A stretch of DNA of 64,000 bases, taken from positions 3,008,001-3,072,000 of the forward strand of contig OY762897.2 in assembly GCA_963666515.2 (NCBI GenBank). Direction: 5' to 3'. Source of the stretch: Candidatus Binatia bacterium. GTDB lineage: Bacteria; Desulfobacterota; Binatia; UBA9968; JAJDTQ01. A program made the position numbers and the translations under genes. Under the pieces are notes generated by a model. The model searched no databases. It was not told the DNA's origin and saw only the letters and a list, made by a program, of their open reading frames with translations. Positions 40,738-47,319 of the stretch are shown here, in pieces; the first letter of the stretch is position 1, and each line of letters begins with the position of its first letter.

Positions 40738-41697
40738 CTATCCGCTCTGCCCCGGCTCCTGGTTGCCGCGCCTCGCGGTGTGGCCCAGCACCGTGGTGGC
40801 GGCGCCGATCATGGAGGTGAGGTCGCTCAGGTTGGCGGGGACGATGAGGGTGTTGCCTTCCTTGGCGAGGTTGCCGAAGCGCTCCAGGTAGTTCTCGGCG
40901 ACGCGAAGCTGCATGGCCTTGTCACCGCCTTCCGAGTCCAGCGCCTCCGCCACCTTCTTGAGCCCTTCGGCGGTCGCTCCGGCCACCGCGAGAATGGCCG
41001 CGGCCTCGCCTTCGGCCTCGTTGATCTGCCGCTGCTTGGCGGCCTCCGAAGCCTTGATGACCTGCTGCTTCTCGCCTTCGGCCTCGTTGATCTTGGCGTC
41101 GCGTTCGCCCTCGGACGACAGCACGGTGGCGCGCTTCTCCCGCTCCGCCCGCATCTGTTTCTCCATGGCCGACAACACGTCCGACGGCGGATTGATGTTC
41201 TTGATCTCGTAGCGCAGCACCTTGACGCCCCACGGATCGGACGCCTTGTCCAACTCCTCGACGACGCTCTGGTTGATGTGGCCTCGCTCCTCGAAGGTCC
41301 GGTCCAGCTCGATCTTGCCGATCTCGCTGCGCAGCGTGGTCTGGGCGAGCTGGGAGATGGCGAACACGTAGTTGCCGATGCCGTAGGACGCCCTTTCCGG
41401 GTCCACCACCTGGAGGTAAAGCACGCCGTCCACCCCCACCTGGACGTTGTCCGAGGTGATGCAGACCTGTTCCTCGATGTCCATGGCGTGCTCCTTGAGG
41501 CTGTGCCGGTAGGCCACCCGCTCCAGGAACGGCACCAGGATGTTGAATCCCGGCTTGAGCGTGCGCGAGTACTTGCCGAGGTTCTCGATGACGTAGGCGT
41601 TCTGCTGAGGCACCACCACTGCGGTCTTGATGAGAACGATGAGCACGACGAGGGCGATGACGCCCGCGGTGATCAGGAAACCCAGATTCGCATCCAT
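40738..41697 (-). CDS. SPFH/stomatin-like protein (QmcA-like)
   Basis: CITSDNV, QLAQTTLRSEIG, WGVKVLRYEIK, MEKQMRAEREKRA. Confidence 0.94.
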   Translation of the reverse strand: MDANLGFLITAGVIALVVLIVLIKTAVVVPQQNAYVIENLGKYSRTLKPGFNILVPFLERVAYRHSLKEHAMDIEEQVCITSDNVQVGVDGVLYLQVVDPERASYGIGNYVFAISQLAQTTLRSEIGKIELDRTFEERGHINQSVVEELDKASDPWGVKVLRYEIKNINPPSDVLSAMEKQMRAEREKRATVLSSEGERDAKINEAEGEKQQVIKASEAAKQRQINEAEGEAAAILAVAGATAEGLKKVAEALDSEGGDKAMQLRVAENYLERFGNLAKEGNTLIVPANLSDLTSMIGAATTVLGHTARRGNQEPGQSG

Positions 41698-42165
41698 TTA
41701 CTTGCCCCTTTCGGATTCGTTCACGATGTCGTCCGCCAAGCCCTCAATGGAAAGGTTCACGCTGTCCCGTCCCACCACCCGCGCACGGGCGCCCGCGGTG
41801 ATCGGCGCCGTGCCCACGTTGACCGCGGTCCATTGCGTCCCTTGCAGGATGACCCGGGTCTCTCCGCCGCGCGGCACGTCTTCACCGACCGATACGATCC
41901 GTCCGGCCACCTTGTACTCGAAACCCGGGAGCCCGCCGCGAATCCGGTCGTAGAGCCTCCCCCGGAACAGCACCATGGACGCGACCGCGAGAACCGCGAA
42001 GGCCAACAATTGACCCCACACGGGCAGCTCCACTCCAGCCAGCCCGATGATCCCCACGCAGACCGCGGCGGCGCCGACGAAGATAAGATAGAACGCGGCG
42101 TCGACCGCGGTCAGCTCCAGCCCCATCAAGATGATACCGATGCTCACCCAACCCCACCAAGGCAT
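41698..42165 (-). CDS. NfeD family membrane protein
   Basis: N-terminal TM helices and C-terminal OB-like GTQWTA; paired with SPFH. Confidence 0.88.
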   Translation of the reverse strand: MPWWGWVSIGIILMGLELTAVDAAFYLIFVGAAAVCVGIIGLAGVELPVWGQLLAFAVLAVASMVLFRGRLYDRIRGGLPGFEYKVAGRIVSVGEDVPRGGETRVILQGTQWTAVNVGTAPITAGARARVVGRDSVNLSIEGLADDIVNESERGK

Positions 42166-42315
42166 GCCCCTGCTCCTTCAACTTTGGACCGCCGGCTTCC
42201 TCACCGGTTGCTTCAATGACCCGCCATGACGGTTTCCGCCGGTATTGGTTTACCCGGCCGGTACGAGTATGCTGAATTACACGGGCTGGATCAATCCCGC
42301 CAAGGAGGTGCCGCC

Positions 42316-43086
42316 GTGACCTCGCCGGATCAATTCATCGTCGAACTGTGGGAGTACGCAAACCAGGTGCCAATGGTGGAGCACCCCTGGTTCAAGGGCA
42401 TCGTCGACCACCGCTGGAGCCGGGAACAGATCGTCCTGGGCGAGGTGCAGCACTATCTCCGGGTGCGCACCAACCCCATCTACTTCGGCTACATGGCGGT
42501 CAACGCGGTGGCGAACCGGGAACAGGGGCTGGCGGACGTGGTGCTGGAGAACTTCATGGAAGAGCTGTCGGGCGACCGCAGCCACGTGGACATCATGTAC
42601 CAGTTTCTGGAAGAAGCCGGGATCTCGCGCGAGGATGCGGACAATGCCGAGCCCACGCCCGGCACGCTGGCGGCCATCGAGATGATCATCGGCTGCTGCC
42701 AGCGAAGGTCGGCGCTGGAAGGCGTGGCCATGCTCGCCTTCGTCGAGAGCCAGCACGGCGGGCCCGACGGCGCGGCCGCGCGGGTCTACAAGGAACTGGT
42801 GGGGCACTACGGCTTCTCGGAACGGCAGGTGGAAACGTACCGCATTCACGCGGAACAGGACGTGGGCCACGGCTCCCGGCAGATCGACACCCTCCGCCGG
42901 GCCGCCGCCGATCCCGAAACCCGCGAAAAGATCCGCGGCGCCGTGAAGCTCGGCATCACCGCCTTCACCCTGGAGTGGGACGGCCACGTGCAGGCCATGA
43001 CCGGCCGGCGGGACTTCTGGCCCGGGGTCCGGCCCTTCGACCCGCGTCAGGCCGAGACGAGCCTGCCGGAGACGCGGCAGGCGTAA
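42316..43086 (+). CDS. Heme-oxygenase-like diiron protein (PqqC/CADD/TenA family)
   Basis: HPWF, EE-x6-H (MEELSGDRSH), VESQ, HAEQDVGH; AGGAGG before GTG 42316. Confidence 0.78.
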   Translation: MTSPDQFIVELWEYANQVPMVEHPWFKGIVDHRWSREQIVLGEVQHYLRVRTNPIYFGYMAVNAVANREQGLADVVLENFMEELSGDRSHVDIMYQFLEEAGISREDADNAEPTPGTLAAIEMIIGCCQRRSALEGVAMLAFVESQHGGPDGAAARVYKELVGHYGFSERQVETYRIHAEQDVGHGSRQIDTLRRAAADPETREKIRGAVKLGITAFTLEWDGHVQAMTGRRDFWPGVRPFDPRQAETSLPETRQA

Positions 43087-43159: not shown

Positions 43160-43205
43160 TGCATACCCGGCAATGAACCCCGCAGGGGCGACCCACGATC
43201 GCCCT
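43160..43205 (+). repeat. Degenerate REP family A copy with shared flank
   Basis: CATACCCGGCAATGAACCCCGCAGGGGCGACCCACGATCGCCCT versus 60519-60563 CATACCCAGCGATGAACCCCGTAGGGGCGACCCCGCGGTCGCCCT. Confidence 0.7.
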
Positions 43206-43419
43206 AGAACGGCCAGTCGTCCGGCAGCGGCGCGCGCAGCTTCTGGTACTCGGGGTCCTCGCCGCAGGTCTCACCGACGCGTTTCAGCGTCGCGACGAGG
43301 TCGTCGAGTTCCATGTCAAGGGTGTTGGAGACCATACCCGCGGTCTCTTCGAAGCCGAGGCCTCAATTGCCGTATCAGCCACCCATGCGCTTGAAGATGT
43401 ACTTCTCCCGTTCGGTCAT
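43204..43419 (-). CDS. Candidate 71-aa selenoprotein with two in-frame UGA codons (UxxxU)
   Basis: GGAGG RBS 5 nt before ATG; MTEREKYIFKRMGG-TGA-YGN-TGA-GLGFEETAGMVSNTLDMELDDLVATLKRVGETCGEDPEYQKLRAPLPDDWPF-TAG; GC3-rich codons on both sides; downstream hairpin. Confidence 0.65.
43328..43347 (-). promoter_or_regulatory. Candidate SECIS hairpin for the double-UGA gene
   Basis: GAGACCG-CGGGUA-UGGUCUC; the loop starts 23 nt after the second and 35 nt after the first UGA. Confidence 0.45.
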
Positions 43420-43474
43420 GCTTTCCTCCGGGCACTTACCAAGTGCGTTCGAGCGTCATTTTTGACGTCAACCG

Positions 43475-43897
43475 TCAGGCCATCGACGCCTTCTCTCGAC
43501 TTCCGGGCTCTGAGAACCCCACACGCTGAACCGTCACGAGTTCCGTGGTCGCCGCGGGCGACCCGTCCGCCCCGAAACGCACGGTCATGCGCACCAGGAT
43601 CCGCCAATGGATCTTCCGCCATTCGACGGTGGAGATCAAGAAGGTATTCTCCACTACCTCGCCGGCCCGGCCACGGCAGGCAACCACGGCCTCCAGGTCC
43701 GTGCTGGCGGACGGCGCGACTCGGACGTCCGCAAGCTCCCGCAGGCCGCTACGGAACCGCCCGTGCGGGAACCGCGCGTCCAGAAACCGCATGTCGGATG
43801 CGGTGAGGTTGTCGATGCGCCAGGCCACGCGCCAATCCTCGCCGCACCGGACGCAGGATATCTGCGTCGCCCGGACCCGCGGCTCTTCCACTTTCAA
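43475..43897 (-). CDS. Hypothetical protein (140 aa)
   Basis: TTGA overlap with the UbiD stop; ARFPHGRFRS and VVENTFLI motifs; beta-rich. Confidence 0.65.
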   Translation of the reverse strand: MKVEEPRVRATQISCVRCGEDWRVAWRIDNLTASDMRFLDARFPHGRFRSGLRELADVRVAPSASTDLEAVVACRGRAGEVVENTFLISTVEWRKIHWRILVRMTVRFGADGSPAATTELVTVQRVGFSEPGSREKASMA

Positions 43898-45258
43898 TCC
43901 TCCGCGCGCTTCGGACGGTACTCGGCCGCGGCGATGCGGTCGGGGAACTCGATGTCCTCGTTACGGCAGGCGTCGATGATGAGCTTCGAGCCCCAGTCCT
44001 TGCCCGGATGCACCGGATCCAGACGGCTGCCCTTGACGCGGTCGATGATGGAGATGTCGGTGGCGGCGTCCACCCGGGTGGCAACGGCCCACAGCACCTC
44101 TTCCTCGTCGTACACATCGATGTCGGCGTCCACGACGACGACGTGCTTCAGCAACTCCGAGCCCGTGAACGCGGCCATGGCCGCCAGCTTGGCTTCGCCC
44201 TCGCAACGCTTGTCGATGCTGATGTAGCAGTGGAAACGGCCGGCGCCGCTCAGGGGCAGGCACACCGAACGCACCGTGGGCACCACCGCCTGGACCTTGC
44301 GGTAGATGCTGCCTTCCTTGGGCACGGCGCCCAGCAGGCGGTGGTCCCGGTGGCCCGCCAGGATGTCCATGCACCAGGCGTCGCGGCGGTGGGTGATGGC
44401 GGTGACCTCCACCACCGGCGATTCCCCCGCGGGACCGTACAGACCGGTGAAGTCTCCGAAGGGTCCCTCCACCTCCCGCTGGTGCGGCAGCACCCAGCCC
44501 TCGATGACCATCTCGGCGTCCGCGGGCACCAGCAATTCGTCGCCGAAGGTCTCGGACGGCACCAGCCGCAACGGCTCGCCCATCAACCCGCCGATGCTCT
44601 CGTACTCGTCGTCGGCGATGCCGTTCAGGATGCAGTTGCCGAGGTAGTAGGCCGGATGGTGGCCGACGACGCAGGCCACCGGCAGCGCCTCGCCGCGCTC
44701 CTCCGCGCGCATGAAGTAGTCCCAGAGATGCCGGCGCTCGAAGAACATGACGAGGTGGTTGGGGTCGCGCACGTAGCACCGGTGGAACGAGGAGTTGTAG
44801 ACGCCGGTGTCCGGGTCCCTGGCGCACCAGGTCATGGTCAGGTAGGGGCCGAGATCAGCCACGTGATGGGTCAGCACCGGCAGAAAGTGTAGGTTAGGGT
44901 CCATCCTGACCTGCTTGACCGGCGCGTCCGCGGCGTCCACCACCACGGGTTTTTCCCGCCGCGCCTCCCGGGCCTGGAACTCCAGCATCAGCTCCCGCCC
45001 GGCCTGCTCCGGCGGCAGGTCGAGCGCCACCGCGCAGGCCGCGCGCGACGCGAACACGTTCATCAGCAGAGGGAACTCCGAGGGCTCGCCGCTCAGGTTG
45101 TCGATGTTGGAGAAGAGCACCAGCGGCTCCTGTTTCCGCTTCTCCAGGTCGGCGATCATGGCGCACACTTCCAGGTTGATGTCGTGCTTGTCCGTGACCT
45201 CCAGCAGGCGCTCGGGGGCAAGGCGCCTGACGGACTCGACGTAGCTTCTCAGGTCCAT
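43894..45258 (-). CDS. UbiD family decarboxylase
   Basis: MDLRSYV, YNSSFHR, VPADAEMVIEG, EGPFGDFTG, VVVDADID, VLWAVATR, KLIIDA; start trimmed to ATG 45258. Confidence 0.93.
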   Translation of the reverse strand: MDLRSYVESVRRLAPERLLEVTDKHDINLEVCAMIADLEKRKQEPLVLFSNIDNLSGEPSEFPLLMNVFASRAACAVALDLPPEQAGRELMLEFQAREARREKPVVVDAADAPVKQVRMDPNLHFLPVLTHHVADLGPYLTMTWCARDPDTGVYNSSFHRCYVRDPNHLVMFFERRHLWDYFMRAEERGEALPVACVVGHHPAYYLGNCILNGIADDEYESIGGLMGEPLRLVPSETFGDELLVPADAEMVIEGWVLPHQREVEGPFGDFTGLYGPAGESPVVEVTAITHRRDAWCMDILAGHRDHRLLGAVPKEGSIYRKVQAVVPTVRSVCLPLSGAGRFHCYISIDKRCEGEAKLAAMAAFTGSELLKHVVVVDADIDVYDEEEVLWAVATRVDAATDISIIDRVKGSRLDPVHPGKDWGSKLIIDACRNEDIEFPDRIAAAEYRPKRAED

Positions 45259-45331
45259 CGCCAGAGTGTACGGTCCGGCAACGTGCCCGTCAACGTCGAG
45301 CGGGCGAGGACCGGATTCCGGCGCCCCTTCT

Positions 45332-45416
45332 CTGGACCCCGGATCAAGTCCGGGGTGACGGTGCGGGAGTTCGGGGTGACGCTTTCCGTCATTCCGGGCT
45401 TGACCCGGAATCCAGG
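45332..45416. repeat. Inverted pair of family B palindromes
   Basis: CTGGACCCCGGATCAAGTCCGGGGTGACGG ... CCGTCATTCCGGGCTTGACCCGGAATCCAGG; the second copy is the exact reverse complement of 59181-59211. Confidence 0.8.
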
Positions 45417-45504
45417 TGGGGCGGTCCGTTGCAATCGCTCCAGGAAAGGAACAGTCTTGAGTTTCGCCCCTCCATCCGACCAGAGGGATTAGAGCTTCGG
45501 CCCC

Positions 45505-46473
45505 ATGAGCACGACCACTAACGATCGGAACCACACGATCCACCTGACCGTCCCGCAAATGCTCCACGGTAAACGGCTGGATGCTACCCTCGCCGCACTG
45601 TTGCCCGACTACTCACGATCGAGGCTCCAGCGGCTGGTCCGGGAGGGGTACGTCCGGATCGACGGCCGTGCGCCGGAGTGCTCCGACAAGGTCGCGGCCG
45701 GAGCCTCTATTGAGCTGGAGTTGCCGGAGCCCGCCGAGGTCTCCTGGAAGGCGCAGCCCATCCCGCTTGAAATCATCCATGAAGACGAAGCCCTGCTGGT
45801 GATCAACAAGCCACCGGGCATGGTGGTCCATCCCGGCGCGGGCAATCCCGAGGGCACGCTGCTGAACGCGGTCATGCACCACGCGCCGGCGCTCGAGGCC
45901 GTCCCCAGGGCCGGCATCGTCCACCGGCTCGACAAGGACACATCGGGCCTGCTGGTGGTGGCCAAGACCGATGTCGTGCGGCTTAGGCTGGTGCGGGAGC
46001 TGCAGGCGCGGCGCATCAAGCGGGAATACCTGGCGCTGGTGCGCGGCGTCCTCCGCGCCGGCGGCTCCGTCACCGCCCCCATCGGACGGCACCCGGTTCA
46101 CCGCACCCGCATGTCGGTGCAACGGCGCGGCAAGGAGGCCACCAGCCACTACAGCGTGAAGGCGGCGTACCGGAACCACACCATGCTGAGGGTCCGGCTG
46201 GAATCCGGACGCACCCACCAGATCCGGGTGCACATGGCGCATATCGGACACCCCGTGGTGGGCGATCCGGTGTACGGCGGCCGGAGCGCCGCCGGCAAGG
46301 GTCAGGGGACAAGGCTCACGGAGTCGTTGCGCGGCTTCCGGCGTCAGGCGCTGCACGCCGAGCGGCTGGGGCTGAGCCACCCCGAGACCGGCGAGTCCAT
46401 GAAATGGACGGCGCCCATGCCTCCGGACATGCGGGCGCTCGTGGAGGCGCTCGCGGAAGACGCGCGTTCATGA
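45505..46473 (+). CDS. rluD: 23S rRNA pseudouridine synthase RluD
   Basis: S4 domain RLDATLA, VINKPPGMVVHPGAG, GIVHRLDKDTSG, GRTHQIRVH, GDPVYG, RQALHA. Confidence 0.95.
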   Translation: MSTTTNDRNHTIHLTVPQMLHGKRLDATLAALLPDYSRSRLQRLVREGYVRIDGRAPECSDKVAAGASIELELPEPAEVSWKAQPIPLEIIHEDEALLVINKPPGMVVHPGAGNPEGTLLNAVMHHAPALEAVPRAGIVHRLDKDTSGLLVVAKTDVVRLRLVRELQARRIKREYLALVRGVLRAGGSVTAPIGRHPVHRTRMSVQRRGKEATSHYSVKAAYRNHTMLRVRLESGRTHQIRVHMAHIGHPVVGDPVYGGRSAAGKGQGTRLTESLRGFRRQALHAERLGLSHPETGESMKWTAPMPPDMRALVEALAEDARS

Positions 46474-46614: not shown

Positions 46615-47319
46615 ATGGGTCAACCAGTCAGCGCCTACAACTACGAAACCTTCAACCGATCGGAGAGTTCGGCCAAGGCGGGTGAGTTCGCTGCGCGCCT
46701 GCGTGCGGGCGAGGAGGCGCCCGACTTCAGCCTCCCCACCCTTGACGGCGAGACGGTCCGGCTCTCCGGGTTCAAGGGCAGCAAGCACGTGCTGCTGGAG
46801 TTCGGAAGCATCACCTGACCGCCGTTCGTGGGCGAGGTCTCGCCCCTGAACGAGATGTACCGGACCTATCGGGACAAGGGCTTCGAGTTCCTGACCATCT
46901 ACGTGCGCGAGCCCCATCCGGGAGAGCACTACGGCCCGCACAAGGATTTCGAGCAGAAGGTGGAATACGCCCGCCATTGCCGGGACCAGGACGGCATCGA
47001 GAACCCGCTGCTCGTGGACGACCTCGACGGCACCGTGCACCAGCTCTACGGCGTGCTCCCCAACATGGTCTACATCGTCAGCAAGGAAGGCCGCATCGTC
47101 TACAAGGCCATGTGGACCGACCACGACGAGATCCGGGTGGTGCTGGACAACCTGGTCATGGCCGACGAACTGCGCGCCGAGGGCGTGCGCCTGAAGCCGT
47201 CCCTCACCGAGAAGATCAACTTCATCCCCGCCCAGTACGCCGGCGGCGTCCGCGAGAAGGTCTTCGACCGGGCGGGACCGAAGGCCTGGGAGGACTACCG
47301 GAGCACCTTCGGGGAGTAG
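46615..47319 (+). CDS. Selenocysteine-containing thioredoxin-fold protein, iodothyronine deiodinase-like
   Basis: ORFs 46615-46818 and 46828-47319 are one frame joined by TGA 46816-46818: APDFSL...LLEFGSIT-U-PPF...IYVREPHP...YGVLPN; SECIS follows. Confidence 0.88.
46823..46852 (+). promoter_or_regulatory. Bacterial SECIS element
   Basis: CGUUC-gu-GGGCGA-GGUC-UCGCCC-cu-GAACG; GGUC apical loop begins 18 nt after UGA and resembles the E. coli fdhF AGGUCU loop. Confidence 0.8.

Follow-up and report, generated by a model that had tools for sequence, protein, structure and literature searches.

A putative 71-residue selenoprotein with two selenocysteines, encoded in a three-gene module with a heme-oxygenase-like dimetal enzyme in Binatia

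The DNA analysed here, which we call the window, is a stretch of 64,000 nucleotides from a Candidatus Binatia bacterium (contig OY762897.2, positions 3,008,001 to 3,072,000). On its minus strand, at 43204..43419, lies a gene for a protein of 71 residues whose reading frame contains two TGA codons. One explanation fits the observations best as a whole, and we consider it probable: the two codons are decoded by SelB as selenocysteine (Sec, U), the resulting U-x-x-x-U protein belongs to a module of three genes, and it serves the dimetal enzyme that another of these genes encodes. That 43419-43204 is a real and conserved protein gene is confirmed, far beyond chance, as judged by its conservation in sequence.

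A conserved gene with two in-frame TGA codons

The frame opens with ATG at 43419-43417 and closes with TAG at 43206-43204 if TGA is translated as U. The first TGA is codon 15 (43375..43377) and the second is codon 19 (43363..43365). A Shine-Dalgarno sequence, GGAGG, stands 5 nt ahead of the ATG (43425..43429). A first-pass annotation of this DNA had placed the start, both TGAs, the stop, the ribosome-binding site and a hairpin (described below) at these positions, and all of them are correct. It had also remarked that the gene is missing from the list of open reading frames (ORFs). This is borne out: the table 11 list for the locus holds the 43-aa tail ORF (43204..43335) only, hence the two-Sec gene is absent from it. 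Public gene calls evidently see the tail alone as well, since the 25 relatives returned by a word-indexed protein search are nearly all 43 aa long (24 of them; the remaining one has 51 aa).

Such calls would be expected if the locus were a decayed pseudogene, or a pair of unrelated short ORFs (a 14-codon upstream peptide and a 43-aa ORF), with the TGAs acting as ordinary stops. The tail is what is called in those 24 of 25 cases and in most of the 125 matches of a second search. The pattern of conservation argues against it.

We searched 61 related genomes from three families of one order, reading whole genomes through stop codons. An orthologue is present in 49 of the 61, and each match contains exactly two in-frame TGAs. 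Identity among the 49 orthologues goes down to 43%. Both TGAs are in register in every one of these loci, with zero indels 3' of the first TGA, and in 48 of them an ATG lies 14-16 codons ahead of it. A Shine-Dalgarno-like tetramer (from a loose motif set) is found at most 18 nt from the ATG in 45 of the 48. A further scan, with one genome per species, returned 160 stretches. Eighty were kept, of which 59 are more distant loci; 58 of these have TGA at both sites and one has Cys followed by TGA. The first TGA is therefore found in 49/49 relatives and 58/59 distant loci (TGC in one), the second in 49/49 and 59/59. Of the 108 loci, 107 retain both TGAs together with the reading frame and spacing, and in all 108 the two Sec positions are separated by three residues.

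The exceptional locus, L099:2524-2697, combines TGC (Cys) at the first site with TGA at the second. Its contig is 2.9 kb long and belongs to a metagenome-assembled genome titled Nocardioidaceae, which has no selB match. Its small protein is otherwise identical to that of a locus labelled Chloroflexota (L129), so the contig may be mis-binned.

Selection on the protein is similar on either side of the first TGA. Among 94 distinct sequences, the 13 codons before it have a proportion of synonymous differences (pS) of 0.633 and of nonsynonymous differences (pN) of 0.320, giving a pN/pS of 0.505. Codons 18-56 after it have a pS of 0.641, a pN of 0.324 and the same pN/pS of 0.505. In the two other reading frames pN/pS is 0.85-1.9. 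The equal ratios before and after the TGAs indicate that one frame is translated throughout, N-terminal part included, and the N-terminal codons are conserved together with the downstream part. At the amino-acid level, the best-conserved stretch runs from between the TGAs through to Met29. Finally, homologues with Cys (next section) are one continuous ORF, and the natural variant has Cys at position 15. A pseudogene or a pair of separate ORFs is therefore extremely unlikely.

When profile A1 was run against a 400-genome sample of the phylum, the window's own genome was the sole accepted match; a weak further match (E 0.0024), without stops and within a 379-aa open frame, was taken as spurious.

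Cysteine homologues and selenocysteine machinery

A profile of the 49 proteins was compared with 1.84 billion representative sequences. It gave 125 matches, mostly tail ORFs of 41-49 aa, and 25 were fetched. CxxxC occurs in 22 of the 25, and 17 of those 22 are full length. Two long repeat proteins from this search (P0039 and P0143) were spurious. An alignment of 16 Cys forms with the window protein shows the two Cys without variation, in line with U15 and U19. The other invariant residues are F23, T26, M29, L45, R63, P67 and P71. Invariant Cys at both sites, together with the natural C/U variant, makes a classic Sec/Cys signature. Homologues thus have TGA or Cys at positions 15 and 19 throughout; Trp, Arg and Gly were never found among them. 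The first-pass proposal of a candidate di-selenocysteine protein is supported, with both TGAs in all 49 orthologues and Cys in other homologues.

The genome has what it needs to make selenoproteins. All four components of the machinery score over curated cut-offs: selA (587 bits), selB (371 bits), selD (381 bits) and tRNA-Sec (73 bits). The three protein genes form one cluster outside the window (G000:C1:4043412-4047708). The selD gene itself contains one in-frame TGA with a downstream hairpin and thus encodes a Sec-containing SelD. A second selenoprotein gene had been noticed about 3 kb away and is indeed there: a gene of the deiodinase / AhpC-TSA type at 46615-47319 on the plus strand, with its TGA at 46816-46818 in the motif GSIT-U-PPF and a GGUC-loop hairpin starting 11 nt past the UGA.

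Across the relatives, selB scores over the cut-off in 57 of 61 genomes. Two aspects of this distribution weigh against our explanation. No selB match over the cut-off was found in 3 of the 49 genomes that hold the gene, all three fragmented (210-640 contigs). Moreover, selB is present in 11 of the 12 genomes without the two-Sec gene. The machinery is near-universal in the order, and we dropped it as a discriminator.

A hairpin within reach of both UGA codons

In bacteria, SelB is recruited by a hairpin, the selenocysteine insertion sequence (SECIS), in the coding region itself. RNAalifold, applied to 84 distinct segments of 81 nt, predicts two hairpins in this region, both on the minus strand. 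Hairpin 1 (43350..43365) has a 6-bp stem that includes the second UGA and a variable 4-nt loop. Hairpin 2 (43328..43347) has a 7-bp stem, GAGACCR/UGGUCUC, and the loop CGGGNA; we propose it as the SelB-binding SECIS. The earlier description with a single hairpin is correct for 43347-43328 and has to be extended by the second conserved hairpin at 43365-43350, which holds UGA2.

From 10 nt past the second UGA onward the segment is almost invariant among the 84 sequences. In hairpin 2, 99.8% of cells are paired, and the minimum free energy (MFE) is -8.5 to -9.2 kcal/mol. Its 6-nt loop starts 22 nt after UGA2 and 34 nt after UGA1. According to a published model, a bacterial SECIS has a loop of 3-9 nt, a G in the first two loop positions, a spacing of 16-37 nt and an MFE of at most -7.5 (PMC13188914). 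Hairpin 2 agrees with all four properties for both UGAs. The earlier suggestion that one SECIS could serve both codons hence fits the published spacing.

The synonymous sites of this region are frozen. Fourfold degenerate sites in the stem of hairpin 2 are fixed (ACC in 49/49, GTC in 48/49), whereas variation is seen at the third position in the loop and at the base that follows the stem. Codon entropy is 0.35 in codons +5 to +16 after the TGAs, against 1.28 elsewhere (Mann-Whitney p 1.3e-4), and pS there falls to 0.186 compared to 0.63-0.64 in the flanks. As a control we used 67 distinct genes of the Cys form. Here no collapse is seen, as pS is 0.731 over codons +5 to +16 and the flanks have 0.71-0.73. 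The frozen synonymous sites therefore go with the TGAs.

Some properties of hairpin 2 weaken this reading. The covariation analysis that had been suggested was run, and no covariation is available: compensatory changes occur in 0 of 13 predicted stem pairs, and shuffled alignments give the observed values. The structure of the hairpin hence rests on invariance and energy. In addition, its bases also encode invariant residues (E-T ... V-S).

Two of these features, the missing covariation and a CGGGNA loop unlike the GGUC loops of the genome's selD and deiodinase-like SECIS, would also be compatible with UGAs that are read as Trp, Gly or Cys, be it by a near-cognate or suppressor tRNA or through a local recoding signal independent of SelB. 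Such decoding does not sit well with the remaining evidence. Both sites are occupied in homologues by Cys, which is the typical counterpart of Sec, and Trp or Gly is never found there; the Sec machinery is complete; and hairpin 2 passes all four properties of the bacterial SECIS model. Furthermore, the true stop of the 49 orthologues is TAG in 23, TGA in 18 and TAA in 8; with TGA as the genuine terminator of 18 of them, TGA is not recoded genome-wide. We regard decoding as another amino acid as very unlikely.

Selenocysteine insertion by SelB can itself be arranged in two ways. Each UGA could have its own SECIS, with hairpin 1 (43365-43350) serving UGA1 and hairpin 2 serving UGA2. Speaking for this, and against a shared element, hairpin 1 is predicted by RNAalifold, its third codon positions do not vary in the stem but do so in the loop, its MFE is -7.5, and one-sided changes in it retain pairing (G-U 69, A-U 14, G-C 1). 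Its loop, however, starts 15 nt after UGA1, just short of the 16-37 nt range, and in most sequences the 4-nt loop (CUCG) has no G as its first or second base. The loop also has no conserved base that SelB could recognize. Hairpin 1 is therefore the weaker SECIS candidate, as it fails both the spacing and the loop-G rule in most sequences, and we think separate elements rather unlikely. A single shared hairpin is the best reading of the decoding.

The data show or strongly support a decoding in which the ribosome would start at ATG 43419 and SelB with Sec-tRNA would read UGA codons 15 and 19 as Sec. The single in-frame hairpin at 43347-43328 would recruit SelB, its apical loop being within working distance of both UGAs, and hairpin 1, with UGA2 in its stem, may tune decoding.

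This arrangement resembles that of canonical bacterial genes with an in-frame SECIS, represented in this genome by selD and the deiodinase-like gene: a G+C-rich hairpin with Gs in its loop lies tens of nucleotides past the UGA, and the same genome-encoded SelA, SelB, SelD and tRNA-Sec would act on it. It differs in its loop, CGGGNA, which is related but not identical to GGUC, in its two UGAs 12 nt apart and in the extra hairpin that holds the second UGA.

A module of three genes

Co-occurrence and gene order show that the Sec gene belongs to a module of three genes, together with genes for a beta-sandwich protein and a dimetal oxidase. The beta-sandwich protein has 140 aa and is encoded directly upstream in the same direction (43475..43897, minus strand). 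The enzyme is a heme-oxygenase-like dimetal protein similar to CADD, encoded on the plus strand at 42226..43086 (Pfam Haem_oxygenas_2, PF14518, 6.6e-17). It is one of five heme-oxygenase-like paralogues in this genome.

The Sec gene is found in 49 of the 61 relatives. The enzyme orthologue and the 140-aa gene are found in exactly these 49 as well, and the other 12 have none of the three. These 12 genomes span five genera: three of the genera are represented among them by all of their sampled genomes, and two by part of them. Related genomes are not independent, but the pattern implies that the set as a whole was gained or lost several separate times. The module genes still co-occur in a few genomes where they are 2-60 kb apart. 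Among the 59 distant loci the 140-aa gene is found in 56 and the enzyme gene, with about 70% identity, in 52; gene order is kept in 52-56 of them.

Eight distant loci (L091, L102, L117, L122, L130, L133, L135 and L137) come from records titled Chloroflexi or Limnocylindria, and their small proteins have a signature of their own. The enzyme gene is present in 8/8 and the 140-aa gene in 7/8, five times directly upstream and twice about 2 kb off. Of five genomes tested with labels other than Binatia, four have selB over the cut-off (L091, L102, L133 and L129), the exception being the small-contig C/U case. These loci suggest that the module exists in a second phylum, possibly by transfer.

The first-pass annotation had pointed to a UbiD-family decarboxylase as the upstream neighbour. 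Its gene (43894-45567, minus strand) overlaps the start of the 140-aa gene with its end by 4 nt. The link is confined to this genus: a match is found in only 12 of the 59 distant loci, at about 28% identity, and we rejected UbiD as a functional partner. The conserved partners are the 140-aa beta-sandwich gene and the heme-oxygenase-like enzyme. On the other flank of the enzyme gene lie an SPFH/Band 7 gene and an NfeD-like gene (40738-42165, minus strand), neither of which is conserved in the distant loci.

The 140-aa protein has no match in Pfam or NCBIfam. Its AlphaFold2 model, with a predicted local distance difference test score (pLDDT) of 93.2, is an eight-strand beta sandwich, and the nearest fold is ApaG (Z 9.9, root-mean-square deviation 2.8 over 106 residues). 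Two other searches were set aside. Foldseek against the PDB gave generic beta-sandwich matches only (TM 0.3-0.4), and the ESM Atlas gave unnamed Chloroflexota/Binatota clusters and a lead, at 0.83, to DUF1573 Ig-like domains.

The operon of the cysteine forms

The Cys forms also have a heme-oxygenase-like neighbour. We examined 80 metagenome loci (L139-L218). In soil, the Cys form is part of an operon of co-directional genes for the small CxxxC protein, a protein with zf-C2H2_9 and TENA/THI-4/PqqC-like domains, and Ta0938 (for example L214:5043-6410). All 57 loci with enough room have a heme-oxygenase-like gene directly 3' on the same strand, and in 47 of 52 Ta0938 comes next. Both have structural-genomics relatives: the enzyme matches PDB 4lqx (E 1.4e-89) and the Ta0938 protein matches 2fqh (E 1.8e-22). 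A literature search for Ta0938 returned nothing on topic. Genes for DUF169 or ThyX proteins often stand upstream in these loci.

Both arrangements thus contain the same family of small proteins, with invariant C, C, F, T, M, L, R, P and P, beside a protein of heme-oxygenase fold. They differ in that Cys replaces Sec, all genes of the Cys operon are co-directional, its enzyme is of another subfamily, and the zinc-type protein Ta0938, of which the window genome has none, takes the place of the beta-sandwich protein. The enzyme beside the Sec form and the one beside the Cys form share 23% identity (E 3e-5), a difference that counts against our explanation. The small protein is thus tied to the fold and not to one subfamily.

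The dimetal enzyme compared to CADD

The closest solved structures to the module enzyme are CADD and the 4-aminobenzoate synthases (E 2e-12, about 195 residues). Three residues are invariant (E113, H120, E174) and three more are conserved to at least 90% (H208, D212, H215). All six align with the metal-ligand positions of CADD. The enzyme therefore agrees with the definition of a heme-oxygenase-like dimetal oxidase, a heme-oxygenase-like domain (PF14518) with conserved Glu, His and Asp ligands.

Best structural match and conserved ligand positions are where the likeness to CADD ends. The position of the CADD substrate residue Tyr27 is taken by Phe56, invariant in 52 sequences, and that of Lys152 by Val187. 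The NCBIfam CADD model gives 58.5 bits, against a cut-off of 200. In CADD, a published study reports, Tyr27 is a substrate residue and Y27F abolishes formation of 4-aminobenzoate (PMC9522330). With Phe56 instead of the substrate tyrosine, we rejected the module enzyme as a self-sacrificing 4-aminobenzoate synthase of the CADD type. A further difference is its company: a dedicated small Sec protein and a beta-sandwich protein.

Fold of the small protein and comparison with known selenoproteins

The small protein is predicted to be a compact, acidic four-helix domain in which the two Sec lie where helix 1 ends, spaced by one helical turn. This prediction comes from the Cys homologue closest to the Sec forms (P0027), whose model (pLDDT 94.7) has four helices, no strand and both Cys at the end of helix 1. 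The motif had been thought to lie in a Gly-rich loop; the model of the Cys homologue places it at a helix end instead. Two limits weigh against reading too much into the fold. The model is of P0027 and not of the window protein, and a wide structural search with VIA-align finds common helical arrangements only, the best hit (Z 7.5) being a designed protein. Foldseek against the PDB returned nothing for the Cys homologue at E <= 0.001, and the ESM Atlas gave no useful lead (best score 0.76).

The VIA-align list consists mostly of helix-turn-helix domains (MntR, Z 6.4; GerE, 5.7; sigma region 4, Z 5.0-5.6), and one Cys homologue has weak NCBIfam matches to sigma-factor models (E 0.002). The small protein might accordingly be a redox-sensing DNA-binding regulator with a helix-turn-helix-like fold, in which a selenol/diselenide switch controls the neighbouring genes; adjacency to a target gene would fit. 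The Z scores of 5.0-6.4, however, are under the tool's guide value for helical proteins, and Foldseek is silent at its threshold. The composition is poor for DNA binding, with 14 acidic and 8 basic residues counted from the translation. The invariant residues are the Cys/Sec pair, Phe, Thr, Met and a Pro-rich C-terminal tail, and no basic recognition helix is among them. A regulator is improbable on these grounds.

Two Sec close together in one motif, with Cys/Cys homologues, recall the bacterial SelL and Prx-like proteins. The bacterial SelL gene described by Shchedrina and colleagues in 2007 reportedly uses one in-frame SECIS for both of its UGAs. The bacterial UxxU forms described in two studies are Prx-like proteins and a putative mercuric reductase (PMC9312934, PMC2398784). 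The present protein differs in its UxxxU spacing, in a motif at a helix end, in a predicted four-helix fold that is neither thioredoxin nor peroxiredoxin, and in a dimetal oxidase as genomic partner. Neither the window protein nor any of ten Cys homologues scored over cut-offs when scanned with Pfam and NCBIfam, and there was no match to AhpC-TSA, Redoxin or Thioredoxin. Membership in the SelL/Prx-like UxxU group is ruled out by the UxxxU spacing (108/108 loci) and the helical model without strands.

We found no description of a UxxxU selenoprotein family, or of selenocysteine in Binatia, in the literature, where supplements (deep-Sep Table S2) and BSepDB could still list the family. The accessible parts of PMC9312934, PMC13188914, PMC12013277, PMC2398784, PMC1976440, PMC9522330, PMC13108848 and PMC11965152 do not mention a UxxxU family. 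We rate the protein as a new selenoprotein family, for which neither Pfam nor NCBIfam has a model.

A possible function of the selenocysteine pair

Judged by co-occurrence, the small protein would be a partner of the dimetal enzyme, either for redox or for metal handling. Most likely the diselenol/diselenide pair would serve the enzyme by giving electrons back to the metal site once this is oxidised. Alternatively, the small protein may handle the metal of the enzyme, or the Sec pair may be the residues on which the enzyme acts. One arrangement argues against any such partnership: the enzyme gene is convergent with the Sec gene and not co-transcribed with it.

The last of these possibilities deserves its own evaluation. 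As a substrate, the small protein would have its Sec/Cys pair or a nearby residue oxidised, giving a protein-derived cofactor or product, or it would be sacrificed as a donor in the way of CADD's Tyr27. Self-sacrificing CADD is the enzyme that the neighbour resembles most, yet the neighbour has an invariant Phe at the Tyr27 site. The three genes co-occur strictly, and a near-invariant Tyr is found in the tail region of the small protein. Enzymes of the heme-oxygenase-like superfamily are cited, in one study, for the modification of ribosomal peptides (PMC13108848). On this view the small protein could be the precursor of a ribosomally synthesized and post-translationally modified peptide: it adjoins an enzyme of that superfamily, but the model of its Cys homologue is compact and well folded (pLDDT 94.7), unlike typical disordered precursor peptides. 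Moreover, the genes are convergent in Binatia, and no modified product is known. A substrate role is in our view doubtful, and a redox or metal-handling partner is the role we prefer.

More speculatively, the module may be an enzyme system of a new kind, whose dimetal oxidase works on a dedicated protein-borne diselenol or by way of it. The diselenol could be a stoichiometric substrate that ends up in a selenium-containing cofactor or small molecule, or the small protein could be the first dedicated selenoprotein reductase of a dimetal oxidase. We consider this unlikely. If it were true, the substrate version would parallel the way CADD consumes its own tyrosine, and in either version the soil operons of the Cys form, with their 4lqx- and 2fqh-family proteins, would carry out this chemistry with sulfur.

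Several consequences follow from the gene as such. Public gene calls shrink it to a 43-residue stub, and hence selenoproteins are undercounted in Binatia and, it appears, in some Chloroflexota. A motif in which two Sec are spaced by one helical turn, in a fold other than thioredoxin, would be unusual. With both UGAs in reach of one hairpin, the gene would be a natural test case for the range of a SECIS and for the decoding of two adjacent UGAs. The exact co-occurrence with an orphan dimetal enzyme that lacks the sacrificial tyrosine of CADD offers a testable idea of what this enzyme needs. The same question now includes two structural-genomics protein families without an assigned function (4lqx and 2fqh).

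Minor features and traces of expression

Between the 140-aa gene and the ribosome-binding site lies a palindrome, GCACTT-ggt-AAGTGC (43432-43446). It is present as had been described, and it is not kept even within the genus. We dropped it as a regulatory site (43446-43432), since it lacks conservation among the nearest relatives, and it is probably a chance feature.

One orthologue from the same genus (L005:1498-1710) has CCC in place of the start ATG and is otherwise intact. Translation could start instead at an ATG 31 codons before the first TGA or at one 3 codons before it.

In close relatives, the gene is covered by RNA-library contigs, which come from three studies. This is weak evidence of expression because DNA carry-over is possible. 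The runs are assembled contigs of relatives, in shares of 0.05, from which strand, transcript ends and expression level cannot be read and in which uncovered parts carry no meaning. A 278-nt contig matches 43206-43418 with 19 differences. In run X1, the contig of record 3, from a close relative, starts one base inside the start codon and ends at the stop (43206-43418). In run X2, one contig extends upstream through the divergent spacer into the 140-aa gene.

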